The notes under the pieces: generated by a model | What the model saw: only the letters and a program-made list of their open reading frames with translations | Told to the model about the DNA's origin: nothing | Database searches by the model: none | Assembly (NCBI GenBank): GCA_000002435.2 | Contig: CM018789.1 | Reading direction: 5' to 3' (one strand) | Origin: Giardia intestinalis | Lineage: Eukaryota | DNA length: 64,000 nt | Position numbers and translations under genes: made by a program | Shown: positions 4,436 to 33,171 of the stretch, piece after piece | Layout: each line of letters opens with the position of its first letter | Position numbering within the stretch: position 1 is the first letter of the stretch

Positions 4436-4479
4436 TGTCTAGCTTTTTTTACACTTTTGCTTAAGCCAAAAAAAATACC
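4436..4479. promoter_or_regulatory. 44-bp divergent promoter region between RPB1 (-) and LeuRS (+) with an A-rich initiator (gccaaaaaaaatacc-ATG)
   Basis: Two divergent start codons lie 44 bp apart, with an A/T-rich tract immediately 5' of the LeuRS ATG. Giardia promoters are known to be very short AT-rich initiator-like elements. Confidence 0.5.
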
Positions 4480-15073: not shown

Positions 15074-15164
15074 AGGCATAACGAGGTAGTTTAAAATAAA
15101 ACTCCGTGTAAAATTTTACATCCATTTAATATTATATCATTTTGGCACATTCTTTTGCTGGCCA

Positions 15165-17105: not shown

Positions 17106-17203
17106 ATTGTGTGGCTCTATCAGCTTTAACATGTGGTAAATCAATAAAATATTTGTTTTGAAAACGCCTTGTGGCAGCAATCGATCAACAGCTGCTGCAT
17201 ATT

Positions 17204-19174
17204 ATGGATTTTGGCGATGACCTAGCTGGGATGAATCTGGACTTTATGTTCGACTTGGGCTCTCCTGCGTCATCCCCGGTCACAAAGTCTAACAACACTG
17301 GAAGCATGGTCTCGCTCTTCAGTAACTTCAGTAACTGCTCCATGAGTCCACGATCAAACATCCAATGTTACACAGAAGAAACACAGAGTGTTCAGAGCCT
17401 GCATACAACCTCCCATCCTTCAGCCAATACTTTACTTCGTCCAATATTTTTTGACTCTACTGTACAAGATAGCTATTACTGCGAGAGTACAGGCAGCGAT
17501 GGGGTTGGAGCTTCCTCTATAGTGCTGGATAGTACAGCTGAACCCAGCAGCGTGGCTATTTCGGCTTGCACTCTTTCCCCCGGTACCACCCAACCCGCTC
17601 TGCATCAGAGAAACCTAACGAAAGCCAGAGAGAGGGGAGACACACGCTTGATTCATGCAGCATATGCTGGTGATGTTTCCACCGTTTCGTCTCTGATGCA
17701 CTTGGTTCAGTTGAAGAATACTCACGGGATGACGGCGCTGATGGCTGCTGCCTATAGTGATTGCGATCAGTGTGTGTCTATCCTCCTTCCGTTTGAAAAC
17801 CGTCTTCAAGCTAATAACGGGATGACGGCTTTAATGTGTGCAGCGGCGAAGGGGAGCATTAAAAGTGTATCAATGCTGATTGACACAGAACTGCGGATCC
17901 AGGATAAGAACGGGAGAAGTGCTCTTATGTATGCTGCCCAGAAAGGTAACTATGAGTGCGTGAAGATGCTGTTAGGAGAGGCTACGCTGACTGACAAGGC
18001 TGGAAACACGGCCCTTATCATAGCTACCATGATGGGATATATGCATTGTGCTCGGTGTCTTCTTAAGCACGAAGCGGGCTTTAGACTGCCATCCGGGCTG
18101 ACCGCCCTTATGATAGCAGCCCACAAAAAAGACGCAGCAATAGCATCTCTACTTCTTTCAGAGTGCAGGCTGCGTGACAATAAAGGAAAGACTGCATTGA
18201 TGTATGGTGCCGAGGCAGGCGCTGACGGATGTGTGGAGATTCTTATGACCCACGAGAGTGGTGTCCAAGATTGTAAGGGTAATACGGCATTAATGTATGG
18301 AGCTAGGGCGGGGCATTTTGGATGCGTCGAACTCCTAGCATCATTAGAGTCCCAGTGCATTAACTCTGCTGGGTACACTGCACTTATGATGGCCGCATGC
18401 GGGGACTTTTCGGACTGCGTGGACGCCCTCGTAGATCTCGAGGGGGGAATGACAGACAAGGATGGCCGTACAGCGCTGATGCTTGCGGTGTCATCAGAAG
18501 CCGTCACCTCCGCGAAACTGCTACTCAGCGAGGCTAGAATGGTCGATAAAGTAGGGAATTTCGCATTAATATATGCAGTTCACAAAAACAACGAGGCCCT
18601 GATTCGTTTGTTATCTGAAAGAGAGGTACGCATGCAGACACCTAAGGGGTATACAGCGCTTATGATTGCTGCATCAATGCCCTGTAAAGAAATAACTGAG
18701 CACCTGCTCGATGAGATAGGGCTTATCACAAAAGATGGGTATTGTGCCCTATACTATGCAATAGATGCTGGTAATAGTTGTGCAATTAACCTGCTATTAC
18801 CGTATGAAGCTTCTCTTCTGGGGATAACGTCAGACATGCGGTATGCTCTGTGCGGCGACGTAGTGTCCTTGGCACTATCCCACACTCGGGGAATACCATA
18901 CAGAGACAAGTTTGGACGGACGGCACTTGTGTATGCAATCTTAGGGAATCACCTTAAATGTGCTGAGCTGCTAACAGAAGACAGTGATATTGCTGATGTT
19001 AACGGGTGGACCCCTCTCATGTATGCGGCGAAACGAGGCTATACTCAGTACATAGATTTGCTTCGAGGCTCTAATTGCTCTGCAATAAATAAAAATGGTC
19101 ACACACTTCTAGATATCGCCAAGAAGGCCGGGCATGCTGCCTTCCTTCATGCGGCAACCCATATTCTTAGTTAA
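17204..19174 (+). CDS. Ankyrin-repeat protein (Protein 21.1 family), about 656 aa. Start moved from the track's GTG at 17171 to the ATG at 17204
   Basis: More than ten consecutive ANK repeats of the form G.TALM.AA..G....V..LL. 17171-17173 is GTG; first ATG is at 17204 (MDFGDDLAG...). Confidence 0.75.
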   Translation: MDFGDDLAGMNLDFMFDLGSPASSPVTKSNNTGSMVSLFSNFSNCSMSPRSNIQCYTEETQSVQSLHTTSHPSANTLLRPIFFDSTVQDSYYCESTGSDGVGASSIVLDSTAEPSSVAISACTLSPGTTQPALHQRNLTKARERGDTRLIHAAYAGDVSTVSSLMHLVQLKNTHGMTALMAAAYSDCDQCVSILLPFENRLQANNGMTALMCAAAKGSIKSVSMLIDTELRIQDKNGRSALMYAAQKGNYECVKMLLGEATLTDKAGNTALIIATMMGYMHCARCLLKHEAGFRLPSGLTALMIAAHKKDAAIASLLLSECRLRDNKGKTALMYGAEAGADGCVEILMTHESGVQDCKGNTALMYGARAGHFGCVELLASLESQCINSAGYTALMMAACGDFSDCVDALVDLEGGMTDKDGRTALMLAVSSEAVTSAKLLLSEARMVDKVGNFALIYAVHKNNEALIRLLSEREVRMQTPKGYTALMIAASMPCKEITEHLLDEIGLITKDGYCALYYAIDAGNSCAINLLLPYEASLLGITSDMRYALCGDVVSLALSHTRGIPYRDKFGRTALVYAILGNHLKCAELLTEDSDIADVNGWTPLMYAAKRGYTQYIDLLRGSNCSAINKNGHTLLDIAKKAGHAAFLHAATHILS

Positions 19175-19248
19175 CTTGTTCTGATTTTTTCGTTTTTGGT
19201 TAAATAGTGCTACCACAAGTTTTAGCTCTTTACAGCGGGAGAAAAAAA

Positions 19249-19584
19249 ATGTCTCTGAGCAACTGCCTTCACAAGCCCGACGAGGAGAGGACCAAGGAGA
19301 AGCACGTCCCCGAGATGAAGCTCAGCGGGAACCACGTTGACATCAGGTGCGGCGCTACGGTCATGCACCCGGCGACTGAGAAGCACTACATCGGGACGAT
19401 CCGCCTCTTTGGCATCACTAAGGAGGGCAACGTCACCTTGGAGCTGGGCTGCCAGCAGATTTGGCCGGGTCTTGGAGAGCCTGTTGCTAGCTTCCGTGTC
19501 TGTGACCTGGAGAAGTACAAGGGCCTTTTAGCTGTTGCTTATTGCAACCTCCACGGCTGCTGGGAGAACTACATGGAGCTCTAG
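19249..19584 (+). CDS. SOR: Superoxide reductase (1Fe-SOR, neelaredoxin/desulfoferrodoxin centre II type), 111 aa
   Basis: EKHVP motif (TKEKHVPEM). His ligands are in the right spacing (HVD, HPATEKH) and the C-terminal CNLHGCWEN matches the SOR CN[IL]HGxWE Fe-ligand motif. The track ORF starts at a GTG (19207). First ATG is at 19249, preceded by gagaaaaaaa. Confidence 0.8.
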   Translation: MSLSNCLHKPDEERTKEKHVPEMKLSGNHVDIRCGATVMHPATEKHYIGTIRLFGITKEGNVTLELGCQQIWPGLGEPVASFRVCDLEKYKGLLAVAYCNLHGCWENYMEL

Positions 19585-19591
19585 AGAGTTG

Positions 19592-19598
19592 AGTAAAC
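19592..19598 (+). terminator. Polyadenylation signal AGTAAAC 8 nt after the SOR stop, inside a 20-bp convergent spacer
   Basis: Exact AGTRAAY match between the SOR TAG (19582-19584) and the stop of the minus-strand gene (19605-19607). Confidence 0.55.
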
Positions 19599-19604
19599 TC
19601 CTGC

Positions 19605-22310
19605 TCACCACCCTATCCATCGTTCCGTAGGCTCTCCTGCCTCTACCAGGGCGGATTGCAGCCGGCTTGATCCTTGGTTGCTTTGCACCATCGAGTGCTG
19701 AGCGGAGAGGGGTGTGCGCGCAGGGAATCGCTTTATATACTCCGCAGCCGAGCGAGCACATGACGGGGTGTACGAGCCATCTTGTTGAGGGCCTCCGATC
19801 TGTCGAGTAAGGTTAAGCCTGCTAGCCTGCTTTAAGTGAAGCTCGCTGGTCGCAGTCTTACTTAGACGTCCGCTACGTATTGATGACACCGTACCTATGC
19901 CTCCGCCTTTTGAATGAACAGCCTCCAGGAATTCTCGCGAACGAGGTGTCTTTTGTTCCTTTAGGGCTATCTGGAGAATTTCCCGGACCAAGCCTTCGTC
20001 AACCCCTTTCCTATTGCGAATAACGGCGCTTCCGACAATCTCGACACCATCACTGGATGCCTTCTCTAGCCCAGGGTAGAGGAGAGGGATACGCTTAGGA
20101 ACAGGTAAGTTCATTTCCTTTATGCTGATTGCAGCCCTCTTGATAGATTCAAACTTAAAGAAGAAGCGGAAAAGGGCATTGACACGAACAAAGCTAAATA
20201 GAAATCGATAAACAGGGAACATAAGGACGGCTACTAATCTAGACTCTTTTCTCACCTGTAGGTCCGGTCGTTCCTTAAACTTTATGTACTCTAGTGACGC
20301 TGCTATTATCCACTGTGCGACAAACACAAGTATGTACATCAGAAATACCACTACGTTAAATTGCCTAATAACAATGGATAGAACAATGTGATAGACTAAA
20401 AGAGGATAGCGGAAGTAGTCTTGGAGTACCGTCCAGACATCTTCAAGTGTAACTATTCGGAGATACAAGTTGTCCACAGTGCATGGAAGACAGCAGAGCA
20501 CTTGCCCATAAAACCCGCTTTTGGGACTGGCGCAGAAGCCTCCCCAAAGAAATTGCTGTGCTGCAAGATCCCACGATGTAAAGCGCTGATAATACAGATC
20601 CTTCCATGTGGTTGGAGCAACCGTGGCCACTATACAACTTGAAATAAATCCGCAGCGTTTGGTACTAAATAGCTTGCGCATGGCCAATCCCATTTGATAG
20701 TCCTCGCCATGAAAGATTCCATTGTGCTCTGCCATAATATGGTGCAATAGGGATGCTTTCCAGAGGTTAATTGCCCCATGTGGAGAAAGGACCGACGATG
20801 AGTGGGTGAAGTTGTATTGCGTAAGCTTCGACAGATCTGACAACTTGTACTCGATATCTTGAAGGCCAACTATCATTTTGCTTGTTTTGCTTAAGTTGGT
20901 TGGCTGTCCCCCTGGCCCCGTTTCATTGTAAGTTGCTGCGATTGCAATAGCGTATGCATCACATGTTAGTTCTCCGGAAAGCACGGGAGCCAATTCTCTG
21001 GGCAAGACGGTGTCGTCGTCCATAACAATGCAATACTCAAATCCAAGCCAGGAGCTAAGGATAGAGCCATAATATGCAGAGCAAGATTTGCTCCCGATGG
21101 CTAGGGGCACGTAGACTGCGCGTCCTTCGCAGCACTCCATCACAACACTATCTGGAAGTTCCTGGTCTGATGAGTTATGGATTACAAAGACATCCGTTGG
21201 GTGGAAAACATTCAAGGCGCCCTGAAGCGTATTGGTGAGAACTTCCAGTTTTCCAGCCCTTTTCCTTACCTTTTGTTCCTGTGTTAGTCCCTTGATACCC
21301 CAGCCAAGCGGAATGATCAATGCTATCTTTCCAGGAGTTATCTGATCGCTTGCATTATCCTCTTCGTTAAGCTTTGGCAGAGGCGCATATTGACCTAGTT
21401 TCATAGCAACGAACATCAGAATATATTCTAAGGAAATGAATATGTAAAATAGGACAGTCATCACTTGAAACGCTATCTTCATTCCACCTAAGACAATCAG
21501 TAAGGTTATTGCGGTTCCTATAAGAATGCCCCAAAGTGCAATCCACAAGTAGTGAGGCCACGAAGATATTAAATCCGGCCCAAACGCCGCCTTATGGTAG
21601 TCATTCACCTGAGAATTGACGCTATTGATAAAGACAGTTGCTTGGACCTTCCTTACGTCCAGGTCCACAAAGTGGTTCTTGATTTTCTTCAGTACTGTGT
21701 GAATCATATCATCTTTTATATCTAATATCTGCTTGTAGTTGCTTGCAATGGAGAGGTTTATGTCATAGCCATACGGCGTTCCTATTGATGCCTTGTAAGG
21801 TGTTGGCGCGATGCCGTCGGTTGCCAAGGGGAGTGCAGTGGGCTCTAGTGTTAAACCTGTTGTGGGTATACCAGTTGACGTTGCACCTTCAGCTAGCTTA
21901 GCTCGCTGTACACCTCCTGAAGCTATTCCAGGAGTTTGCGAATTGTTCTTGCGATACACCACCGAGTGTGTTGAGGGACTAGCGATACTATTGGTGAGCG
22001 ACGGTAGGCTATCACATTCCCCCGCCTCCTGGGCCATGGTGACTGGTACCCTGGATGGTTCTAGTGCCAACTCATTAGAGGGTTGATGAAATCCAACCTT
22101 TCCTCGTTTCCCTTTTTTCTCTTTGGGCTTCTCTAATGAGAGTGTGGGCACCGGTGGCTCAACAGCTGTTGATCCTTGTGCAGTACCAAAGTCATTTGGG
22201 AGGATCTCGTGCCTCTGGTTCACAATGTAAACCGAGCCCTTTTCCATGCGGCTCATTTCGCCCTCAAATGCATGACCTTGTAGGGCTTTGAGCTTCGACA
22301 GTGCATCCAT
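19605..22310 (-). CDS. Multi-pass membrane glycosyltransferase family 2-like protein, 901 aa. It resembles chitin synthase and ceramide glucosyltransferase
   Basis: Central region has a DxD-like IVMDDDTVLP, then GEDYQMGL, then about 40 aa later YQRFTSW, resembling the D,D,D,Q(R/Q)xRW processive GT2 signature. Several hydrophobic helices flank the domain. N-terminal about 200 aa is low complexity. Confidence 0.45.
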   Translation of the reverse strand: MDALSKLKALQGHAFEGEMSRMEKGSVYIVNQRHEILPNDFGTAQGSTAVEPPVPTLSLEKPKEKKGKRGKVGFHQPSNELALEPSRVPVTMAQEAGECDSLPSLTNSIASPSTHSVVYRKNNSQTPGIASGGVQRAKLAEGATSTGIPTTGLTLEPTALPLATDGIAPTPYKASIGTPYGYDINLSIASNYKQILDIKDDMIHTVLKKIKNHFVDLDVRKVQATVFINSVNSQVNDYHKAAFGPDLISSWPHYLWIALWGILIGTAITLLIVLGGMKIAFQVMTVLFYIFISLEYILMFVAMKLGQYAPLPKLNEEDNASDQITPGKIALIIPLGWGIKGLTQEQKVRKRAGKLEVLTNTLQGALNVFHPTDVFVIHNSSDQELPDSVVMECCEGRAVYVPLAIGSKSCSAYYGSILSSWLGFEYCIVMDDDTVLPRELAPVLSGELTCDAYAIAIAATYNETGPGGQPTNLSKTSKMIVGLQDIEYKLSDLSKLTQYNFTHSSSVLSPHGAINLWKASLLHHIMAEHNGIFHGEDYQMGLAMRKLFSTKRCGFISSCIVATVAPTTWKDLYYQRFTSWDLAAQQFLWGGFCASPKSGFYGQVLCCLPCTVDNLYLRIVTLEDVWTVLQDYFRYPLLVYHIVLSIVIRQFNVVVFLMYILVFVAQWIIAASLEYIKFKERPDLQVRKESRLVAVLMFPVYRFLFSFVRVNALFRFFFKFESIKRAAISIKEMNLPVPKRIPLLYPGLEKASSDGVEIVGSAVIRNRKGVDEGLVREILQIALKEQKTPRSREFLEAVHSKGGGIGTVSSIRSGRLSKTATSELHLKQASRLNLTRQIGGPQQDGSYTPSCARSAAEYIKRFPARTPLSAQHSMVQSNQGSSRLQSALVEAGEPTERWIGW

Positions 22311-22506
22311 GGAATTCTTAGAGAAGTTCCTGTAGCAACCACCGTAGAATCAACTGTGAACACATAAACAGCAGCACATCACATGTAGTGTATCAATTTA
22401 CTTAGCGCTAAAACGGGTATATCATGCAGGATATAAGTCCCATGATATACTGTTCATTAGGCTGCAGTAACCGAGGAGTAAAGAGTTCCATTCATAACAA
22501 AAAGCC

Positions 22507-23361
22507 TTAGTCGTCGCGGGAGTGTTTGATGCGCACACGAGGTGTGTCACTGTCCTCACTTCCCTCAACATCGGCGTGTCGACCGCCTGCAACATGCATA
22601 GGGCACATTGCCTGCGGAGCAGCAGCTTGCATGTTCGACGGCATAGTACTTTGCCTACTCTTAAGGGTCAGTGACCCCGAGACAAAGCCTTCGGTTACAG
22701 GAGAAGTCATGCTAGAGTTGGACGTTGGGACCATTGACCCAAAGGCTGGTCTGCTAGTAAGAGAACCTGGTGGCGCAAACGGATTCTGCTGTACTGCATT
22801 GGATTGTGGCATGGGGATGCCACCACTGAAGCTCGATCGACCCGATAAAGAGCCTACTAAAGAGCCCATCTTAGTAAGGCTGCCAATGATGGCAGAAGCC
22901 GGAGCTCCAGCATTAGCCGTATCAGGCATGGGCATAGGAGGCCTGCTGAATGCAGAATTGTCACTCAGTGATCCAAACGCTGCCGCAGAGAGTCCAACAG
23001 CCGGCCCATGGCTATTTGGAGTAGAAGTAGGCGAAGAAACCATCACACCCATCGGGACTCCTTGCTCCAACATGAACTTAGTCGCGTTCATCTCAGACTC
23101 CTCTATAGCCTCTTGGGCCATGCTCATCTTTGCAATTTCGTCTCGCATGCTCTTGATCTCTGTTTCAGCCTTCTGGAGGGATCGATTGCTGGTGTCAAGC
23201 ATCGATGTCATCTCCCTTTGCTTCGTTTCGCAGCAGGAATGTTCTGTATAAAGTCTTCGGAGCGCATCCTGGAAAGACTTCAGTAGTTTCTTCAACTCCG
23301 GGATATTGTCTGGAGCGGTTGCGAGGTCCATCGTCAACAGCGGTCTAAGAGTCGAAGACAT
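22507..23361 (-). CDS. Hypothetical protein, 284 aa: N-terminal coiled coil followed by S/P/G/M-rich low-complexity tail
   Basis: ORF with verified ATG; no recognisable domain. Confidence 0.5.
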   Translation of the reverse strand: MSSTLRPLLTMDLATAPDNIPELKKLLKSFQDALRRLYTEHSCCETKQREMTSMLDTSNRSLQKAETEIKSMRDEIAKMSMAQEAIEESEMNATKFMLEQGVPMGVMVSSPTSTPNSHGPAVGLSAAAFGSLSDNSAFSRPPMPMPDTANAGAPASAIIGSLTKMGSLVGSLSGRSSFSGGIPMPQSNAVQQNPFAPPGSLTSRPAFGSMVPTSNSSMTSPVTEGFVSGSLTLKSRQSTMPSNMQAAAPQAMCPMHVAGGRHADVEGSEDSDTPRVRIKHSRDD

Positions 23362-23417
23362 GAGAATTTGATCAATTTTTGACCTGAAATTATACGAATT
23401 GAAAATGAAAGAGAGGG

Positions 23418-24707
23418 ATGCCCCATGAAACCTCTAGACATTCGCACAGCAAAGGTCACGACGAATCTACTAAAGAGCGCCGCCACCGGCACCGGCATCG
23501 AAGCAGTTCTGAAGCCGCTTCAGAAAAACAGCAGTCTGACAATGCCTCAGGGACGCTGGTCCACCAAGCGGCTACCGATTCTAAAAGCGAATCTGGTCCT
23601 GCATGTGAAAACTGCTCACTGAGCGCATCACCATCAGGAATGTATTGTTTAGCATGTGACCTTCTCTTGTGCCAAACATGCGATCGTATGGTGCACGCAC
23701 CCTTAGCACTATCCAAGCATGATAGGCGTTCCTTCGAAGAGGCTGCTCTCCGTCGGAAGGCCTGCAGGTTCCACGCAGACCAACAGATTTCCCATTTTTG
23801 TCTACACTGTAACACATTTCTCTGCAAAGTTTGTCTAGATGAAGGATTGCACCAAATATCTCCTCATTTTGTTGATACGTTAGATGACGCTATTCAGAAA
23901 ACGACTAGGGGACTTCTGAGTCTTGTTAACGGTCCCCTTAGGCAGCGCTATGAAACTCTACAGCATGAAGTTGTACGCATAGAAGGACTCATGCACAAAG
24001 TCCGCACTGCTGCTGGGGAGATAGAAGCCCAGGTCCGTGAGCATTACGAGGGTGTGCTAGCTAGACTTGCTCGTTCAGAGAAGGAAAAGTTAGCCCTCTG
24101 TCAGAGTGATTTAACGACCGTCAAAAGTATGATGAAGCAGATAGATGACGTCGAGCACTATGTCGCAGTCGACCATCATAGAAAAAACCCTATAGTCCTT
24201 CTTTCCCAAGCAGGAACGATCAGTGAGAGTGTCCGATCTATACTTGCACGCAAATTATGTGATGCAATCTCTGTTACTGAGGAGAGCATTAGGCCTACCG
24301 ACCTTCCTCGCGAGTCTACTGTAGGTATCTCTAGAGAGATCCGAGAAGCCAGTGGAGATCCGTGTATATCCAAATTGAATATCCCAGATGGGATTACATC
24401 GAAGTGCACCGCGTGTCAGAACAATCTAAGTACACTGTTATCAGAAGCAGAGCAAGAAATCCATCACTGGAAAGCTCTCGTGGAACAATATGCCTTCGAA
24501 TTGGCCGCGTGGGACATGACCTGCTCTCGTTGCGGTCAGCATTGCCTTCCAGAGACAATTAACTCTCCTTGCACACTTCCTAATAAGCCTCCACGTAGGG
24601 AAGACAGAGGATTAGGAGAGGAGCTTTGTAGTAACGGGTCTCTGTTCCAAGAGGATTCAGATAGCCATTCGCGTAGACACTTCTTTGTCCGCTCAGAGGA
24701 TCATTAA
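23418..24707 (+). CDS. B-box-type zinc finger plus coiled-coil protein (TRIM-like without RING), 429 aa
   Basis: H/R-rich N-terminus, then two Cys/His clusters (CENCSLSASPSGMYCLACDLLLCQTCDRMVH and CRFHADQQISHFCLHCNTFLCKVCLDEGLH) with B-box spacing. A predicted coiled coil follows. Confidence 0.5.
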   Translation: MPHETSRHSHSKGHDESTKERRHRHRHRSSSEAASEKQQSDNASGTLVHQAATDSKSESGPACENCSLSASPSGMYCLACDLLLCQTCDRMVHAPLALSKHDRRSFEEAALRRKACRFHADQQISHFCLHCNTFLCKVCLDEGLHQISPHFVDTLDDAIQKTTRGLLSLVNGPLRQRYETLQHEVVRIEGLMHKVRTAAGEIEAQVREHYEGVLARLARSEKEKLALCQSDLTTVKSMMKQIDDVEHYVAVDHHRKNPIVLLSQAGTISESVRSILARKLCDAISVTEESIRPTDLPRESTVGISREIREASGDPCISKLNIPDGITSKCTACQNNLSTLLSEAEQEIHHWKALVEQYAFELAAWDMTCSRCGQHCLPETINSPCTLPNKPPRREDRGLGEELCSNGSLFQEDSDSHSRRHFFVRSEDH

Positions 24708-24727
24708 CTTCTTGCAAAGATAGTATC

Positions 24728-24734
24728 AGTAAAT
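24728..24734 (+). terminator. Polyadenylation signal AGTAAAT about 20 nt after the B-box gene stop
   Basis: AGTRAAY match downstream of TAA at 24705-24707. Confidence 0.45.
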
Positions 24735-24788
24735 TATTTCGTGGTAACCATTTCCCTGAGCCGGGTGCAGGAAAAATTCAAAAATAAA

Positions 24789-27700
24789 ATGAGTCTTACC
24801 GAGCAGCTTCTTGTTACATTACTGGAACAGACTCTGTCGAATAGCCAAGAGATGGTTTCCAGTGCAACAGAGCAAATTCTCTTACATAGACGTAATAACG
24901 ATTTTCTCGGCATCTCGTTTCTTGTTTCGGCTAATCCCCAGGTTTCCTCCAAAATTCGGTCTGCTGCAGCCATTCAGTTTTCTAATGATATCGCTACGAA
25001 GGTACAGAAGCTGGATGGCCAGATGTTAGTCAACATCTCTCTTAAAATAGTGCAGACTGTAGTTGAGGCGGCTGACTCCGGAGCCCTGATTGTTGTACGT
25101 CAGATGCTCGAATCTCTCAAGACAATCTTAGAGTTTTTTTACATGTCTTTTAATCTGCATCCCACGATCAATCCTGCAGTTTTCGCAGGGGATCTGTATC
25201 AATTGATTTTTAGCCTTATCGATAACTCGTCTGTTAGCAAAACGGATGTCTGTATCCAGATGGTAACCATTTTGTTAACCTGTATGTCCTCAGAGAGCTT
25301 AAAGGACATATATTTGAAGATTTCTGTTGACTTCTTTGATCGCTGTCTCAACCAGCTGCTTCAGTACCTTTGCAGTATTGAGGGGGAAATCACTAACTAC
25401 GTTACTCCTCCATTTATAGAGCATGTCTTTGCATGCTTGAACTCATTTTTAACATACAGCACAGTGCAATCTCTGACCTCCTTAAAGTCTTTTTCATCAA
25501 TGATTGGCACAGTTTGTCAGCTCCTAGAAAAAATAGGGATCGGTATTGCAGGCCCGGAAGTTCGTAATGCAAAGGATTATGCATTGCAAATACTTATACA
25601 ATTGTCCATCACGGCCAGATTGGTTGGACGATGTATTTCACCAGAAACAGAGCAGAGCTACTTGCTCGTTTGGAATGAGAACGAGGAGCGTATCGGGAAG
25701 TTATTGTTAGGTCAGTTTTGTCTTTGCCCCGACTATGATCTTTGGGAAGACCACTCTTCATTAGATAGTCTTTTCCGCTTGTCCTGTAGATTAATTGAGA
25801 CCAATCGAGGAGTCCCATATAATCCGAAAGCATACAATCTTCTCGTAAGCAATGGGAAAGATATTATTCAGGCAATTATAGCCATGCTCTATAACGCGGG
25901 TGACTTGCGTCTAGGACAGTTTGAGGAAAATGACCTTTTAGTAATTGACTGCTTAAAGCCGTGTCTAGATTTTCTTTCCAGTCTAACAGCAACTTCCAGA
26001 GAGCTCTTGGAACTCGTAAATGCAGACATGCATATGCGGCTAAATTCAATAATTAATAATGATACTGCTTTCTTGGATACGCCCGAGGGCCAAGTTAACT
26101 TCTTCGTTGGGATCATCCTTCTCCGTAGGGGGCTTTCTGACGACGACACCAACTACAAGGGAATGGTCATATTTGCTTCTCTTATTAATTACACCAAGCT
26201 TAACCCTATTGTGTTTGAAGAGCTCTCCAAGCTTATAATTAGTATTACTACCGAGGAGAATAGTTACATATCGGATTTTAACGAGATTGATACGGAATAT
26301 ACAGGTGATATAGAAGCTCTTTTGCAAAAAACAGTTGCGCAAGGGATCGATGCTATCAAGGCAGGACTCGACTTCAAGGCTCAGCTAGTTTATATTCTTG
26401 GCTGTTTGTATTTACTTCCTACTACATCATTCTTCCAGTGCCGTATGCTAAGTGGTATAATGGCGCGCTGCGTAAGGCACGACTTGATCAACAGAGTCAA
26501 TCAACGGCACCTACTTCTACGATCATTGGAGTTAATTGCTACCTCTCAGGAAAACAGTGCAGCTGGCGGCATGGTCACCTTCTGTCGGGTCGCGTTTCCC
26601 GGACTGGGACCTGATGTTGGGGCCGAAGTTCTCTCTATGTTCCTAAGATTGCCTGTAATCCAGAATGTCTTCTCCAATTACAATAGGATGGATCCAAAGC
26701 TACGAAAAACTGCCGAAATGATTTGCGAAACAGTCAATTTGGTTGTTACCAACGTGGACACTGTCTCGATAAGCCTTGAAGAATGTGTCTGCTCTTTTGT
26801 AGTTGGGTTTTTACAGAAAGATATTAGGGCGTCTCAAGGATGCTTCCAGCTTCTCAACTGTCTTTTACGAAAATCGTCTTCTCTTAGTTCTTCGTCCCAG
26901 AATGCTTATGATTATTCTTATGGCCCTTGGCGGACAGACCTTATCGAACTACTAATCCACTACCTGGACAGCTTTTATCAAACACCAGGGGATTTTATTT
27001 TTAGTAATGCAAGTCATGTGGAGGATATGCTTGCAGAGGCACTTCCATACTTAATCATTCAAACCCAGCGTTTCCATATGGCTTACAAGAATAGTGTTAC
27101 TCAGGGCACGCCAGAGCAGCAAATTGAGAAATTGAATGAGATATATACGCCATTCTTTACGCTTATCAACAAACTGTTGTCTCCTATGAACAGTGCAATA
27201 TTACTTAGTGTAGGTTGTTTTATCCTGACTCGCGTTATGAGTCTGGTGGCCTTGGAATCGAACAATGTTTGTCTAACCGTATTGCAGCATAGCACACAAA
27301 AATTAATTGAGCTTGTTTCTAACCTTCCTACTGTGTGTCAAGGGCTCATGACACACAACCTGACACCTGATCTTAAGCGTTGTATGCTCGTGTCCATCTC
27401 TATGGCCTTCTTCACCCTTTTGCAAATTACTGACATTCACGGTATGGCGGAGAATCTCCTCAGCACTATCGCACCTCACAACTTGAAAATAATGATCTTC
27501 ATTTCGGCGTGGTCTATAGCAGATAATGAGGGCAATCCATTTATTCCCTTACGTGCATGGATGGCCCACTTAGTTTGCTGTCTTAGTAAGATCTTTGTCA
27601 CATTGACGCAAAAGGATCCCACATTCCTATCTGTAGTTGTTCCAAACTTTGCCTGGGCGTATTCCTTATGCAAGATGTCACATTCCCCCGTTGTTACGGC

Positions 27701-28073
27701 ACCGCAATTGGACTTTTCCAGTATTTGCAATAGCGGCATCGAAATAGACATTCTTCAGCCTATATTCTCAGGTCTCAATTCCCAATTTACACGATTTAGT
27801 AATATAGCAGGTAATAATAAGCTTCCTTTGTATGAAGGATTTCTCACTACCCATTTTGAAAACTTCTTTAATTTCCTACCTCGGCAAATTTTTGGAGAAG
27901 TTCCTACTTTCCAGCATTCTTCGTCATCGTTTAAATTTACAGCTCTTCAAGCTTCTATTAGGATGCTTAATTTACAATATGGCGATGAATTTTCCCAGTT
28001 TCTGATAAAAGAGATAAATGATACGTCTGGTAGTTCCTTATTGCATACCACGCTCTCTGGTTACTCTATATAG
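24789..28073 (+). CDS. Karyopherin/importin-beta family protein (exportin-like), about 1094 aa. Start moved from the track's GTG at 24741 to the ATG at 24789
   Basis: N-terminus MSLTEQLLVTLLEQTLSNSQEMVSSATEQILLHRRNNDFLGISFLVSANPQVSSKIRSAAAIQFSND fits the importin-beta N-terminal domain pattern. The rest is a long helical-repeat-like protein. A-rich initiator aaaaataaaATG. Confidence 0.5.
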   Translation: MSLTEQLLVTLLEQTLSNSQEMVSSATEQILLHRRNNDFLGISFLVSANPQVSSKIRSAAAIQFSNDIATKVQKLDGQMLVNISLKIVQTVVEAADSGALIVVRQMLESLKTILEFFYMSFNLHPTINPAVFAGDLYQLIFSLIDNSSVSKTDVCIQMVTILLTCMSSESLKDIYLKISVDFFDRCLNQLLQYLCSIEGEITNYVTPPFIEHVFACLNSFLTYSTVQSLTSLKSFSSMIGTVCQLLEKIGIGIAGPEVRNAKDYALQILIQLSITARLVGRCISPETEQSYLLVWNENEERIGKLLLGQFCLCPDYDLWEDHSSLDSLFRLSCRLIETNRGVPYNPKAYNLLVSNGKDIIQAIIAMLYNAGDLRLGQFEENDLLVIDCLKPCLDFLSSLTATSRELLELVNADMHMRLNSIINNDTAFLDTPEGQVNFFVGIILLRRGLSDDDTNYKGMVIFASLINYTKLNPIVFEELSKLIISITTEENSYISDFNEIDTEYTGDIEALLQKTVAQGIDAIKAGLDFKAQLVYILGCLYLLPTTSFFQCRMLSGIMARCVRHDLINRVNQRHLLLRSLELIATSQENSAAGGMVTFCRVAFPGLGPDVGAEVLSMFLRLPVIQNVFSNYNRMDPKLRKTAEMICETVNLVVTNVDTVSISLEECVCSFVVGFLQKDIRASQGCFQLLNCLLRKSSSLSSSSQNAYDYSYGPWRTDLIELLIHYLDSFYQTPGDFIFSNASHVEDMLAEALPYLIIQTQRFHMAYKNSVTQGTPEQQIEKLNEIYTPFFTLINKLLSPMNSAILLSVGCFILTRVMSLVALESNNVCLTVLQHSTQKLIELVSNLPTVCQGLMTHNLTPDLKRCMLVSISMAFFTLLQITDIHGMAENLLSTIAPHNLKIMIFISAWSIADNEGNPFIPLRAWMAHLVCCLSKIFVTLTQKDPTFLSVVVPNFAWAYSLCKMSHSPVVTAPQLDFSSICNSGIEIDILQPIFSGLNSQFTRFSNIAGNNKLPLYEGFLTTHFENFFNFLPRQIFGEVPTFQHSSSSFKFTALQASIRMLNLQYGDEFSQFLIKEINDTSGSSLLHTTLSGYSI

Positions 28074-28489
28074 CGTTTATGTTAAGATATTTCCCGTCTG
28101 AGATTAGCGTATGGACAGATCGACTGATTAGTTAATGCAAAAGATCCATTTTACCCATCGATTGCTTTTGATAATCTAGATTACTTGGTCCTCACCCATA
28201 GGTCTGGCCACAGTCAGCGAGTAAACCTGCTTTTCTGGGTCTGTGTGCCGGGCGTGTGCATCTCTTTTGTTATCTTTGCCTGTCTTGCTTCCTCTCGCCC
28301 GGTTACAGCAAGGCATCCAACAGCTGTGCAGCTAGCCCATTGTTTGCTGAGTGTTGCAGATCTCATGAAGAGACGTGTTCTATAGATGCAGACTAAGAGT
28401 ATTCTTCAAAAGTAGTCGTCACGGAAAATAAAACTGATGACGACTGTCGATTGCAGATTTTACCCCCTTATTCCAACAATAGCAGAGAA

Positions 28490-29520
28490 CATCCTTGGTG
28501 TGCTGCGCCGCTGCGCCTGCCTAGATGCGGCCCGGAGAGCTCCCAGACAAGCCGCGCTCCTTTGGCCGTGCCCGGAGACGAGTGCTGGCCGCGGACGGCG
28601 CAGCAAGGGGATCCCCGCTATCGGCACACGAGGAGCCCGGCGCCTTCCTCGGTCGCTCCGTGGGTGTGTGCGTCCAGGGCCCTGGCCTTCTCGCGGACTC
28701 TCTGGTCTACCCGTGGCGCCTCTCCTTGGTCTTCCTTCGTGGTGGGTGAAGCTCGGGTCGCCGTCTTTTTGGATGCTTCCGTCTGTCAGGGGCTGCCATC
28801 GGGCTCTCCGCTGGCCGCTCCTCGGTGTCCGGTCAGCTGTGGCCCGGGCCGCGCTCCCACAGTCGCGGTCACCTGGGTCCCGTAGCGGGCCGGCTGGTTG
28901 GTGAGGCAGGGGTATGGGGCGGTGAGGGCTGGAGGAGCTCCTGGTGGAGACCGGGGGGCGGTGTCTGTATGTGCCCCTAAGCTTCCAGTGAGCTACTTCG
29001 GTGGTGGATGAGGTGATCGCAGTTGTGGCGGCCGGGCTCTGGTCGGGGGCTGTGTCTGCTCTCCAGCCCGCGCTGCACGAGACACAGGCCCAGGCACCGA
29101 TGACCGCACCGGGCTCCTGGTCGTCCCTCTGCAGGAGTAGAGGGGAGCCCCTGCCTGCTGTCACAACCACCCGCCCTCAGAGGGCCAGGATTGGGCGGGC
29201 TATCCGTGCGGCCTCTAAGTGCACAGCAGGCGGCCCAGCTCTGGTGCACCGCACAGGAGAGGATCTAGTGGCGGCTAACGATAGCGCAAGAACCCTAGCC
29301 CGGCCGCCCGCTTCCTGTCGAGGACACCGGGCGGAGAAGGCTGGGGCAGAGGGCGGCGGTCGCGCCACTCTCAGACGGCACGGGCCTCTTGGATCCGGGC
29401 AGCCGCGAGCTCGAGAACCAGTTGGCAAACACGGCACCCAGACGGCCGGCTGCTCCCCTGGCGCATACTACAGGGCAGAGCTGCGACGAGGCCTCGGAGG
29501 GCGGATGGATATTAGCCGAC
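28490..29520. other. About 1.0-1.1 kb extremely GC-rich island with no credible ORF, lying 3' of the VSP gene
   Basis: Composition is visibly shifted (one 60-nt line counted 43/60 G+C). Stop-poor frames on both strands give only R/P/G/A low-complexity translations, e.g. 28460-29170(-). No conserved rRNA, tRNA or protein motifs recognised. Confidence 0.5.
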
Positions 29521-29522
29521 AC

Positions 29523-29537
29523 ATTTACTACCTAAGT
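29523..29537 (-). terminator. VSP-specific extended polyadenylation signal ACTTAGGTAGTAAAT, 4 nt after the VSP stop
   Basis: Reverse complement of atttactacctaagt equals ACTYAGRTAGTRAAY, the conserved 3' element reported for Giardia vsp genes. It follows ...CRGKA-TAG-ATGT. Confidence 0.8.
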
Positions 29538-29541
29538 ACAT

Positions 29542-31197
29542 CTACGCTTTGCCTCTGCAGATGAACCACCAGCAGAGGAAGCCGACGAGCCCTCCGACGA
29601 CGACGATGGCTGCGACGGAGATGCCAGCGATGGCGCCCGTGGAGAGCCCGCTCTTGTTCGTGCTTCCGCCATTGTTAGCGCCGTCTGTTTTGATATAGCA
29701 GGTGACAGGGCCACCATTGCCACCAGTTGGAGGGGCACAGCTTACGCAATTAGGTATACCCTGAATGTTACCGCTTGTTTCAGAACACTTTTTACATCCT
29801 TTTCCAGCGTCAAGATAGTATCCGGGGAAGCACTCCGAACACTGCTGTGGAGAAGAACCTGCTGTACATTTTGAGCACCCGTCCGGACACGCTGGGCAGG
29901 AGCCTTGGTTATCTGCTGCTTGCCCATTGGCGCATGTTGTGCACTTTCCTTGCGAAGCTGTGGTGCATAGCTTGTCACCTGGGTACGTTGTCGACTGATA
30001 GCATCCGCCCGATTCCTTAAAGTACGCATCCTTACAAGAAGTGCACGTTCCATCCTGCCCCGGATTGCATCCTGCAATTGTCCTCTGAGTTATTGGCACA
30101 CAGACGCCGTCCACCGGGGCGAATCCGGCCTTGCACTTGCTGCAGTACTTCGAGCCCCCAACGACGGCCGTGCACTGGCCAGCCTCGCAGTTCTCTGCGT
30201 ACCTTCCCGTGCACTCTGGGATGCATGTGCCGGTGGCTCCACCGTTGCCCTTGCTCAGCACAGACCCGGGATAGCAGGCCGTACACGATGTGGCTTCTGC
30301 ATTACCATTGCACTCTGCACATGTGCTATGGCAGGAGGCACAGACACTAATGCCATCAGCACTACGGTCAGAATAGGTTCCAGCAGGGCACTTTTCTAAG
30401 CACGCGTTCCCCAGGGGGCTGAGCCACTTGATACCGCAATCTGAGCAAACAAGGGCCAGCTCTGTTTGTGCAGAGGAAGCCGTGGAGGAGCACTTTTTGC
30501 AGTCCGCGATGCCGTGTGTTGCGTCGCTGCATGAGAGGCACATCTTCTTCGAGCCATTAGAGTCCGTGACCTCCTTGGCGAAGTGCGTCTTATCAGATGT
30601 ACAGGCAGAGGCCGATACGCACACCCCCGAGCGGGCAGCAGCATTCGTCACCTTCAGATAGTTGTCTCCGCTGCAGCTAAGGCACTTATCGTCTTCACTC
30701 GTATTGGCGCCGCTGACGCACTCCTTGCAGCTGGAGTGGCACCCCGGCGTGGCGGCGGGGCAGGTGCCGTCTGCCTGTGGCTTTCCTGTGGCGCAGTCCG
30801 CGCACTTGTTTGCCTCGTTGCACCTTCTGCAGTTAGGGTCGGGGCAAACGAAGCATGCATTTCCTGCAGTATTAGGCTTTTCATTTTTACCGCAGGCCTT
30901 GCACACCAGGGCCGTGGGGTCGGTGCTGTCGGCGTAGTGGTCGTGGGCCCCCGTGCACTCGGCGTCCGTGACGCAGGCCCCGTCCTTCAGGTACTTCTTG
31001 TTGCTGGGGTCGTTGGGGTCGCATTTGGTGCATTTTTTCCCAGTTGAATCGCATTCAGCGCAACCATCGATCGATGGACTGCATGCATCAGCCAGTGCGA
31101 CTGCAAAAATCAAACCAATTCCTACCAACATTGAGGCCAGGAGCTGGCACAGCACCGCTCTGGTTTGCATTAAGAGGCGCACGGGATCCTGCTTCAT
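29542..31197 (-). CDS. vsp: Variant-specific surface protein (VSP), Cys-rich type I membrane protein
   Basis: Numerous CXXC motifs, a GGCY motif (KESGGCYQ), a C-terminal TM segment and the invariant cytoplasmic tail CRGKA-stop. The track ORF starts at a TTG (31293). In-frame ATGs lie at 31197 (MKQDPVRLL...), 31170 (MQTRAVLCQLLAS...) and 31131 (MLVGIGLIFAVALADA, a classic short signal peptide). The true start is one of these. Confidence 0.9.
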   Translation of the reverse strand: MKQDPVRLLMQTRAVLCQLLASMLVGIGLIFAVALADACSPSIDGCAECDSTGKKCTKCDPNDPSNKKYLKDGACVTDAECTGAHDHYADSTDPTALVCKACGKNEKPNTAGNACFVCPDPNCRRCNEANKCADCATGKPQADGTCPAATPGCHSSCKECVSGANTSEDDKCLSCSGDNYLKVTNAAARSGVCVSASACTSDKTHFAKEVTDSNGSKKMCLSCSDATHGIADCKKCSSTASSAQTELALVCSDCGIKWLSPLGNACLEKCPAGTYSDRSADGISVCASCHSTCAECNGNAEATSCTACYPGSVLSKGNGGATGTCIPECTGRYAENCEAGQCTAVVGGSKYCSKCKAGFAPVDGVCVPITQRTIAGCNPGQDGTCTSCKDAYFKESGGCYQSTTYPGDKLCTTASQGKCTTCANGQAADNQGSCPACPDGCSKCTAGSSPQQCSECFPGYYLDAGKGCKKCSETSGNIQGIPNCVSCAPPTGGNGGPVTCYIKTDGANNGGSTNKSGLSTGAIAGISVAAIVVVGGLVGFLCWWFICRGKA

Positions 31198-32148
31198 GTC
31201 ACGGAATTCAGTGGAGCACAGCGGCCAACGGAAGCGAGGGCACATCCTCAAGCTACACCGGAGACCCGTTAATGCAGCATCCGTCCTCAGCAAGCATGAC
31301 TGAGGAAGCCCAGCACTGGCTTTCCTTGCTGTGGGAAGGCATAAGTGTATACATAGACAATGAGTGCATCCATTGCTACATTAACCCAACTGGCGCTTGT
31401 GGCCCTTGACACCCATAGCTATCGTATCCTGCACCTGGCAGACTGCCCGAGTGACCATCGTGGGGGACACAGCGATCGTGATGCTCATGGAGTGGTACAG
31501 AGCTGAATATTAGAGATGGTATTGGTACATCCTGGTTCGTCCACTTCAACCAAGCGGTAGGTGATGCTCTGTACTTCCTAGTCGGAAGAGGTAGTCAGTT
31601 CTGACTTGAGACTCTCCAGCCTTTCGCGGTCCAAATTGCCAAGTTGCATCCTCTTTACTCAGACTTGAATAGTCTCTGAAAGAGTGACATTAAAGGTGGT
31701 GCTACCAAGCTCATTATCTATGCTTCATACAAATACCCTAGGGTAAGCATTAGGCTTTTACAGCAGGAGTAAGTGCAACGGTTTTCATCGGTCACGCTCT
31801 CTTCTAATTCTAACTGTGTAAAGATTGGTATTAATTAAAAGAGCTGTTGAGGGAAACTTTATTATCCTAAAGGGATAAGGAACTACACAAAATGAAGCAC
31901 TCTATTAGAGCAGAAATGCTCGACTATAAAAAGAAGTACATCGATAATAGATTGAGGTTCTCACCATTGACATTTTTCCCCTGTGCATAAGCACTCGCTG
32001 TCACAGTAATTGATCTGTAAATTTCTGCTTTATAACACAAAGCAAGGAAGCAGTTTTGTGAACACCTCATCCGATGTCTAGGCTCTTCATGCTAGACACA
32101 TTGATAACGAGATACCGATCGAAAGAGAAACCAATCCACGATGGAGGC
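31198..32148. other. About 950-bp gene-free region upstream of the VSP and downstream of TatD, which is unusually long for this compact genome
   Basis: No ORF of 60 aa or more that is not an artefact, and no RNA gene motifs seen. It contains a 33-aa ATG ORF at about 31893-31994. Confidence 0.4.
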
Positions 32149-33171
32149 TCATTCTAATACGTTATTATACGCAGGTGTCACAACATCCTCTAAATTAAAT
32201 AGTCTTCTGGAGTTTTCTGCTGTTATTCTTCTCACAACCGATGTTTTCTCCGAGAGCGATAGGGGATTAGGAGAACAGTTTTCGAAGGGATGAGTCGTGA
32301 TTGCTGCGAGAACCTCCGCAACTGCGTTGATGTGGGCAGGCTCTGTTCGGCCTTTAACAAAGCATGGACACTGCAGAGCACAATCACCACATTTCTTATC
32401 ATAATTGCAGGACTTAACTACTTGCCTAAAATGCTCCTTGGTTAATCCAGATAAATGAGAATAGCTAGCATGCGTCGGCTTGACTTCGCACCAAGGGCAA
32501 TCTGTTTCCAAGTGTATTCTACTCAAAGGAATGTTTCTCACAACCGACAAATTATCAGCGGTTTTGAGAGAACACCCGTTGATCCCAATATCAAATCCAA
32601 GGGCCAGGATACGGTTGCACAGATCCAGATCTCCATCAAAGCTATGCACTACGCCTTTTAGCCGGGGCTCCTTCTGTTTATAGTCCGCTAATATTTCTAG
32701 GAAATCAGTTCCTGCGTCCCTGCAATGCAAGAAGAGAGGTAGTGATGGCTGTTTGCTAAAGATATCCAATTGGAGCCTGAATGCCAGCTTTTGAATCTCC
32801 TTACCGGCAAAATGCAGACGAGCATAGTCTAATCCTAGCTCTCCATATGCGCGGACATAAACTGGGAGATTGCCACCGCAAACCAGCTGTTTTAAAACCT
32901 CCAGCGATGGCTTTGGAGAAAGATCTTCAGTCACCAGTTCTGCGGCACGAGTAGGGTGATACCCTATGGTGCATGAGAGTAGTGGCCACTTGTTCATGAG
33001 AGTTGCTGCAGCATTGTACTCTTCTAGATTGCCACAAGTCACAATCATGTGTTGAACGCCATACACCCTGGCTCTCTCTAACACATCTCCAAGATCTCGC
33101 CGATGTTTCTGAGATCCATTGTAGACTCCAGAATAAACATCGTCAAGTAAATTCGCCCCTATGTCTATCAT
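32149..33171 (-). CDS. TatD-family metal-dependent deoxyribonuclease, 340 aa
   Basis: N-terminal MIDIGANL and the TatD-like blocks YGVQHMIVTCG, LHCRDAG, GVVHSFDG, IGINGCSLKT and ETDCPWCE. ATG at 33169-33171 verified. Confidence 0.75.
   Translation of the reverse strand: MIDIGANLLDDVYSGVYNGSQKHRRDLGDVLERARVYGVQHMIVTCGNLEEYNAAATLMNKWPLLSCTIGYHPTRAAELVTEDLSPKPSLEVLKQLVCGGNLPVYVRAYGELGLDYARLHFAGKEIQKLAFRLQLDIFSKQPSLPLFLHCRDAGTDFLEILADYKQKEPRLKGVVHSFDGDLDLCNRILALGFDIGINGCSLKTADNLSVVRNIPLSRIHLETDCPWCEVKPTHASYSHLSGLTKEHFRQVVKSCNYDKKCGDCALQCPCFVKGRTEPAHINAVAEVLAAITTHPFENCSPNPLSLSEKTSVVRRITAENSRRLFNLEDVVTPAYNNVLE

Follow-up and report, generated by a model that had tools for sequence, protein, structure and literature searches.

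A GC-rich, apparently non-coding island at the 3' flank of a VSP gene in Giardia intestinalis keeps its position between assemblages A and B

We identified a 1.03-kb island of high guanine plus cytosine (G+C) content in a 64,000-nt stretch of the Giardia intestinalis WB genome (assemblage AI; the whole stretch is referred to as the window). The island occupies positions 28490-29520, between the 3' end of an importin-like core gene and the 3' end of a convergent gene for a variant-specific surface protein (VSP). We take the island to be a non-coding spacer that forms the 3' flank of the VSP locus, and put the probability of this reading at roughly 90%. There is about an even chance that its GC-richness is kept by duplication and exchange of VSP flanks through GC-biased gene conversion. 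The best explanation of the results is that no protein and no structured RNA are made from the island and that its exact sequence is unconstrained, with position and high G+C content being what persists. Three further isolates were compared with WB: DH (sub-assemblage AII), GS (assemblage B) and P15.

Results

Composition and boundaries of the island

The initial annotation, read from the letters alone, had described a jump to between two-thirds and 70% G+C over about 1 kb. Counting bears this out and the 1-kb GC-rich stretch is real: G+C is 68.7% in 28490-29520 and 48.8% in the whole window, so the composition is not ordinary. The rest of the region had been put at 45-55% G+C, which is not uniformly true, as 53.3-58.2 kb is at 65-68% and is a real gene. 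In 100-bp steps, the G+C fraction is 0.39 at 28400 and already 0.74 at 28500, at the left edge of the island, and it then holds at 0.61-0.76 as far as ~29450. The adjoining VSP gene is at 57%, compared with 69% in the island.

28490..29520, no strand: GC-rich non-coding island, 68.7% G+C, defined by its composition, by the lack of coding, RNA or repeat signals and by the lack of annotation.

The two genes that face the island with their 3' ends are separated by 1468 bp. This gap is an outlier in both length and composition, because most other intergenic stretches in the window are 14-400 bp long with 22-51% G+C; convergent gene pairs elsewhere in the window have 14-225 bp between them. The right edge lies, as had been stated, against the 3' end of the VSP gene (29542-31131, minus strand). 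The base composition of the island is also skewed. On the plus strand, 28490-29100 has 10% A, 21% T and more G than C; the AT skew changes sign near 29100 and is reversed across the right 420 bp (29101-29520).

The island is retained in assemblage B without sequence similarity

The GS contig AHHH01000076.1 has the same arrangement as WB: the importin-like gene, a spacer of ~375 bp that is AT-rich, a 1.35-kb island of 62.9% G+C and a VSP gene placed tail-in. Homology between WB and GS runs at 79.7% identity up to 28106, 33 bp past the importin-like gene, and resumes only in the VSP 3' end. The two islands themselves have no detectable similarity (local alignment against shuffles, z about 0). 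Because the GS island is matched in place without similarity, composition and position have been kept and sequence has not: the position and the high G+C content are conserved between assemblages A and B. The comparison of isolates that the initial annotation had proposed thus finds the island in place in both DH and GS, alignable in DH only. The GS island also shares the skew polarity of the WB island, in weaker form, and among all sequences compared it is the closest to the WB island in dinucleotide distance (0.078, versus 0.19-0.21 for VSP genes). The dinucleotide signature of the WB island is likewise unlike that of the GC-rich gene at 53.3-58.2 kb.

A second VSP-like open reading frame (ORF) on AHHH01000076.1 (18556-20673) is followed by at least 1.1 kb at 65-72% G+C, so that the layout of a VSP gene and then a GC-rich tract is found for two VSP genes in assemblage B. 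A 347-bp piece of this tract forms a GC-rich inverted repeat of 99.7% identity on either side of the same ORF (17759-18105 and 21469-21815), the right arm of which reaches the contig end.

The P15 VSP gene closest to the WB VSP gene sits in a different neighbourhood at a contig end, and the 375 bp of sequence downstream of it have ~57-61% G+C. The P15 contig with the importin-like gene stops 22 bp past that gene. A metagenome scan for further VSP loci returned only four distant C-terminal matches, the origin of which is unclear.

Divergence between WB and DH within the island

The DH contig AHGT01000012.1 is colinear with window positions 14741-29658 at 99% identity, a span that takes in the whole island and ~117 bp of the conserved VSP 3' end. 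WB and DH diverge by 0.30% at codon positions 1+2 and by 1.72% at codon position 3; the figure for the remaining intergenic DNA is 0.85%. The whole island differs by 2.52% (26/1031; 97.5% identical) plus one 3-bp indel. As this divergence is at or above the neutral proxy, the primary sequence of the island is unconstrained. The differences are unevenly placed, with 0/75 in 28490-28564 and 9/575 (1.6%) in 28946-29520, and between these parts lies one zone that changes faster than the neutral proxy:

28565..28945, no strand: raised-divergence zone, 17/381 (4.5%) differences between WB and DH and the 3-bp indel; begins where short-read contigs end.

Compared with the remaining island (9/650, 1.4%), this zone is richer in differences (Fisher p = 0.003, with boundaries picked post hoc). 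Adjacent double substitutions of the type GT<->AC separate WB and DH at 28595-28596, 28882-28883 and 29219-29220. Conversion from a diverged donor would explain such doublets better than independent point mutations would.

The VSP coding body is replaced beside the island

On a second DH contig, AHGT01000100.1, the order is TatD, then a 570-aa VSP gene, then 361 bp of the island. Both flanks are 98-99% identical to WB while the VSP body (29634-31100) is only 40-74% identical, from which it follows that between AI and AII the coding body of the VSP gene was exchanged in situ and that the island stayed. The AI/AII exchange has its boundaries outside the island, within the VSP 5' region and within the conserved transmembrane (TM)-CRGKA end.

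Both DH contigs carry one and the same sequence that starts in the VSP TM region and covers no less than 361 bp of the island (AHGT01000012.1 13334-16145; AHGT01000100.1 11927-14000), and they join this shared VSP-end/island sequence to different VSP genes (448 aa and 570 aa) with different neighbours. The pair represents one of three things: two copies, two haplotypes or a mis-join. We also considered the tail of AHGT01000100.1, a 92% match, as a diverged second copy of the island; this was rejected, as its island part is 100% identical to AHGT01000012.1 and 97.8% identical to WB.

Short-read assemblies break at the island

In five of seven samples, representing three or more projects, Logan contigs carrying the importin-like gene stop exactly at 28564; those of the remaining two stop at 28538 and 28558. 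On the TatD side, AI contigs end at 31466 or at 31450-31454 and AII contigs at 31451-31494, the exceptions being one short AII contig that ends at 32019 and two longer AII assemblies that read into the VSP gene. The contig ends on both sides point to a repeat or to allelic variation across roughly 28535-31495. Because the left break is fixed at one base, ~75 bp inside the island, it suggests a branch in the assembly graph, and the contig ends point to a second copy with a different left flank, or to allelic variants, as the source of that branch. GC-related coverage loss is unlikely, since the break falls at the same base across projects and since the island assembles on its own in AII, where assemblies hold it as separate contigs of 1.1-1.4 kb. 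GS short-read contigs stop ~160 bp into the GS island.

The 380-bp zone of raised divergence and the assembly breaks at the left edge fit gene conversion or duplication. The suggestion that the island is a recombination hotspot that shapes VSP turnover is supported only indirectly: the VSP body swapped between AI and AII, the 380-bp zone and the graph breaks speak for it, but the boundaries of the exchange are outside the island.

The island lacks coding signals

Long stop-poor frames occur on both strands, as had been noted from the letters, the longest being one of 236 aa on the minus strand and three, of 187, 155 and 144 aa, on the plus strand. These lengths are unremarkable because composition alone predicts them: the frames contain 2-9 stops each, with 7.3 expected at the composition of the island, and 14.6% of composition-matched simulations attain the longest stop-free run observed. 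Codon periodicity is absent from the island, with GC fractions of 0.66-0.72 at all codon positions in all six frames; in contrast, the GC-rich gene in the same window has GC1/2/3 of 0.72/0.36/0.92. Substitutions between WB and DH in the 236-aa ORF are spread 8/5/5 over the three codon positions, the island ORFs have more non-synonymous than synonymous changes, and the 236-, 155- and 144-aa ORFs are interrupted by stops in DH.

Database comparisons gave the same picture. Eight island ORFs matched 0 Pfam families, and the 236-aa ORF had no homolog in a word-indexed search of 5.8 billion sequences. The 187-aa ORF matched one cluster among 1.84 billion representatives, which proved to be the AII allele of the island itself; it is called on four ENA contigs of up to 1403 bp, a second cluster member being on an 1108-bp contig. 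None of the island ORFs is present in a 15-billion-protein collection. The reference annotation is empty here, as the flanking proteins have the consecutive accessions KAE8301305 and KAE8301306. The absence of periodicity, the chance-level ORFs, the lack of homologs and the even distribution of WB-DH changes agree with the description of the island as non-coding.

Searches for RNA genes, repeats and foreign DNA

Rfam gave no match at the gathering score in the whole window, and small-subunit (SSU), 5.8S and large-subunit (LSU) rRNA were not found over 28000-30000 even at E<=10. The only two Rfam matches at E<=10, both at chance level, are at 28141-28183 and 29797-29874, outside the island. No tRNA was found in the island. 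RNA folding in 200-nt windows on both strands gave z values from -2.2 to +1.2 with a mean near 0 and thus no excess over dinucleotide shuffles. The island has no canonical G-quadruplex motifs and no meaningful tandem, direct or inverted repeats, and the window holds neither a second copy of it nor an inverted partner of the VSP gene. The sequence AGTRAA, the Giardia polyadenylation signal, is absent from both strands between 28221 and 29523. No site for CCTTYNHTHAA, the Giardia motif for 3' processing of non-coding RNA (ncRNA), lies near the island. A tblastn search with 256 proteins, including 120 VSPs, returned nothing beyond chance-level alignments, with the cysteines out of register, and a blastn search of plasmid records gave no match to the island.

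These results, together with those above, led us to reject several candidates. An rRNA or other Rfam family was dismissed for lack of any Rfam match, including at E<=10 for rRNA, and a structured ncRNA gene for lack of a family, of excess folding and of sequence conservation across relatives. A transposon or retrotransposon of the GilM/GilT/GilD type would be expected to show a remnant of a reverse transcriptase or transposase, or terminal repeats, but no Pfam domain and no significant direct, inverted or tandem repeats were seen. A VSP pseudogene (PF03302) is contradicted by the empty Pfam result, the chance tblastn matches and the distant dinucleotide signature, a relic of the GC-rich coiled-coil gene of the window by the lack of similarity to that gene, and plasmid-like foreign DNA by the blastn result. 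The statement that nothing in the island resembles rRNA, a VSP or a transposon is therefore borne out by the Rfam, Pfam, tblastn and repeat searches. The proposal of decayed ribosomal DNA (rDNA) finds no support, as SSU, 5.8S and LSU matches are absent; for the rDNA spacers there is weak, indirect evidence against it, in that the only match to translations of two long island ORFs is the AII allele of the island. A subtelomeric setting is unsupported because conserved core genes in synteny with assemblage B surround the locus; telomere repeats were not found at the locus.

Genes and edge elements around the island

The features on either side of the island are as follows.

24789..28073, plus strand: importin-like core gene GL50803_0061554, 1094 aa, KAE8301305.1 (ORF and accession); left neighbour of the island.
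28074..28489, no strand: ordinary spacer of 416 bp with ~45% G+C between the importin-like gene and the island.
28423..28439, plus strand: AT-rich initiator-like element with ATG, GGAAAATAAAACTGATG, at the left edge, directed into the island toward the VSP 3' end.
29524..29529, minus strand: presumed VSP polyadenylation signal AGTAAA, read from the sequence, starting 13 nt downstream of the stop codon.
29542..31131, minus strand: VSP gene, 529 aa, KAE8301306.1, PF03302 (ORF, Pfam, CRGKA tail followed by TAG).
31132..31500, minus strand: VSP upstream region, moderately GC-rich, more diverged, with 89-96% identity to DH.
32149..33171, minus strand: TatD-family DNase, core gene that adjoins the VSP gene on the right.

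The importin-like gene has GC1/2/3 of 0.46/0.35/0.44, and its WB-DH differences comprise 12 synonymous and 2 non-synonymous changes, 12/14 of them at codon position 3. The spacer that follows differs between WB and DH at 5/416 positions and contains an AGTAAA on the plus strand at 28220. The VSP protein encoded in the window is 100% identical to KAE8301306.1, and its gene has a CAATGTT initiator at 31127-31133.

The element GGAAAATAAAACTGATG is the sole AT-rich 10-mer between the 28074-28489 spacer and the last ~20 bp of the island; the next ones, at 29505 and 29521, are beside the VSP gene. It resembles the start contexts of real genes in the window, for example caaaataaaatcATG and ggataataaaacATG, and by this resemblance is a putative promoter. 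The edge of the GS island has no AT-rich start context comparable to it. In DH the 155-aa ORF behind the element (ATG at 28437) is shortened to 110 aa, and GS lacks a counterpart of it.

Other features of the window

A second GC-rich tract of ~5 kb, at 53311-58194 on the minus strand with 65-68% G+C, contains the only other windows of such composition. It is coding, and corresponds to a 1627-aa ankyrin and coiled-coil gene with the codon-position profile given above (GC1/2/3 0.72/0.36/0.92). The neighbouring gene at 47716-53214, also on the minus strand, has the same architecture with a GC3 of only 0.48, a striking contrast in codon usage. A 1832-aa coiled-coil gene carries a 300-nt direct repeat of 99% identity (48971-49270 and 50795-51094), a recent internal duplication of part of the protein; the translation repeats ~150 residues exactly. 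At the start of the window, none of the frames in positions 1-4479 (~4.4 kb, 45-48% G+C) has an ORF of more than 134 aa, and the ORFs present have no Pfam match. This is unusual in a genome that is ~81% coding, and the stretch may be a decayed gene or element.

Discussion

The island is a member of a class of VSP-associated, high-GC, gene-poor flanks: it stands beside a VSP gene, its G+C content is above that of its surroundings, and it contains no gene. Franzen et al. (2009) reported that VSP regions in WB have higher G+C than their surroundings and raised a possible role in VSP regulation (PMC2723961). Xu et al. (2020) found the surroundings of VSP genes to be gene-poor with more allelic variation in mapped reads, and described tail-to-tail VSP pairs that are 2.5-2.8 kb apart with no annotation between them (PMC7000408). 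Adam et al. (2010) reported inverted VSP pairs that are identical, with 2-4 kb of non-coding spacing, and whose flanks are identical up to abrupt points of divergence (PMC2996952). Because these papers describe such surroundings, the class is already known at a coarse scale, although its cause and function are not.

With the high-GC VSP surroundings of WB, the island shares its adjacency to a VSP gene, its raised G+C, the absence of genes, apparently a variability above that of the core, and the breaks in assemblies. The reports of Franzen et al. and Xu et al., however, work at the level of 5-kb windows or whole chromosomes and take in the GC-rich VSP genes themselves, whereas the island described here is a sharply bounded tract of 1.03 kb that lacks coding and RNA signals and is conserved in position in assemblage B. 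Like the spacers of inverted VSP pairs, which amount to ~1.3 kb per gene, it is kilobase-long non-coding DNA behind a VSP 3' end, but the WB VSP gene here is solitary and faces a core gene. The island resembles the GC-biased conversion hotspots of other eukaryotes in being a local G+C rise of about a kilobase that is independent of coding, evolves fast and lies beside a recombining family. It differs from them in having edges sharper than the usual gradients, and an AT-to-GC fixation bias is here a supposition.

As to how such a tract would be kept GC-rich, VSP flanks would be copied along with VSP 3' ends, gene conversion would exchange these flanks between copies or alleles, and repeated conversion biased toward G+C would hold the composition high while the sequence turns over. 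The island would then be a by-product and a marker of a recombination-prone VSP neighbourhood and not a gene. We infer the extra copies or alleles, the conversion between them and its G+C bias from the patterns described above. Several points weigh against this reading. The WB-DH substitutions are unpolarised, with two alignable sequences and no outgroup, their counts are 10 versus 15, and the G+C bias is presumptive. The left boundary, from 39% to 74% G+C in ~100 bp, fits an insertion or duplication junction better than a conversion gradient, and the boundaries of the AI/AII exchange are within the VSP gene and not in the island. A second copy or allele in WB was not seen directly, and a search confined to the window found no other copy there. 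The conflict between the DH contigs could be a mis-join. Finally, a composition-dependent function under selection could equally well account for position and composition being conserved between A and B.

Such a function might be that of a cis element, for instance a chromatin boundary or a tract organising nucleosomes, which would shield the VSP gene from the neighbouring core gene or contribute to the epigenetic control of VSPs. A GC-rich island in the same place in A and B despite complete sequence turnover argues for it, as does the fact that other convergent pairs need only 14-225 bp, which makes the extra kilobase specific to the VSP side; a possible importance of high-GC islands for VSP regulation was suggested by Franzen et al. 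(PMC2723961). The by-product model, however, explains the neutral or faster change and the signs of duplication more simply, and the most similar P15 VSP gene has only ~57-61% G+C in the 375 bp downstream, so that we consider a cis element rather unlikely. We judge it unlikely, too, that the island templates a non-coding transcript, in which case GGAAAATAAAACTGATG would start a plus-strand RNA that crosses the island, reads antisense into the 3' end of the VSP gene and feeds a silencing pathway resembling RNA interference. Several features would suit such a transcript: the start context of GGAAAATAAAACTGATG is like that of real genes in the window, the element is the only AT-rich one before the last ~20 bp of the island and is directed at the VSP gene, and no AGTRAA interrupts either strand from 28221 to 29523. 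GC-rich ncRNA elements adjoin antigen genes in Plasmodium falciparum, and a part in the control of VSPs has been ascribed to small RNAs (PMC8957917). However, at the composition of the island chance alone predicts that AGTRAA is absent. Moreover, folding is within what composition gives and no Rfam family was matched, the CCTTYNHTHAA motif does not occur nearby, the sequence evolves at or above the neutral rate, and the edge of the GS island has no comparable start context. The broader idea that VSP-flank islands are functional, composition-maintained elements giving rise to a putative edge-initiated antisense ncRNA that silences VSPs, a Giardia counterpart of RUF6, is very doubtful. RUF6, which accompanies internal var genes of P. 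falciparum, is likewise a GC-rich non-coding element atypical of its genome and located beside antigenic-variation genes (PMC8957917), but it is a short, sequence-conserved, transcribed multi-copy family; the island is not conserved in sequence between assemblages, gives no signal of RNA structure and has no transcript known from it.

The remaining alternatives treat the island as a remnant or as a gene. One or two decayed GC-rich genes, or an rDNA-spacer fragment brought with the VSP gene from a subtelomere, would account for the sharp left boundary and for the change in AT skew near 29100, which looks as if two units met in opposite orientation, and Giardia rDNA and its spacers have ~75% G+C (PMC10123126). 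In its very high G+C within a genome of ~49% the island does resemble Giardia rDNA, for which GC-biased gene conversion has been proposed (PMC10123126), and subtelomeric DNA, but it differs from them in having no rRNA homology (even at E<=10) and no telomere repeats and in being internal to the chromosome, embedded among core genes syntenic with assemblage B. Protein similarity is equally lacking, both for two long ORF translations compared with billions of sequences and for eight ORFs compared with Pfam; there is no above-chance similarity to 120 VSPs and none to the GC-rich gene of the window, and the dinucleotide signature is unlike that of either. Neutral evolution should also erode the G+C content of a relic, yet assemblage B has an island here, which makes this origin very unlikely. 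An unannotated protein gene, such as the 155-aa ORF or the 236-aa minus-strand ORF, could point to the long ORFs on both strands, to the ATG at 28437 in a gene-like context and to the 3-bp length of the sole WB-DH indel within the island. With no periodicity, no synonymous excess, ORF lengths at chance level, stops in DH in the 236-, 155- and 144-aa ORFs, no homologs, no ORF among 15 billion proteins and no reference annotation, we regard such a gene as extremely improbable.

The VSP genes are the drivers of antigenic variation in Giardia, and neither the turnover of their repertoire nor the way in which they are silenced is settled yet. The locus is a clean, small example in which a core gene, a bounded GC-rich island and a VSP body that was swapped between AI and AII beside the retained island can be viewed together. 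In practical terms, the island breaks short-read assemblies, and long reads are advised for such loci. Our finding is an example of a known and poorly understood feature of VSP loci, which would gain greatly in weight were a transcript or regulatory role to be shown. If biased gene conversion maintains the island, it would be a footprint of recombination in an organism for which both sex and recombination are a matter of debate; selection on its composition would point to a cis element of VSP control.

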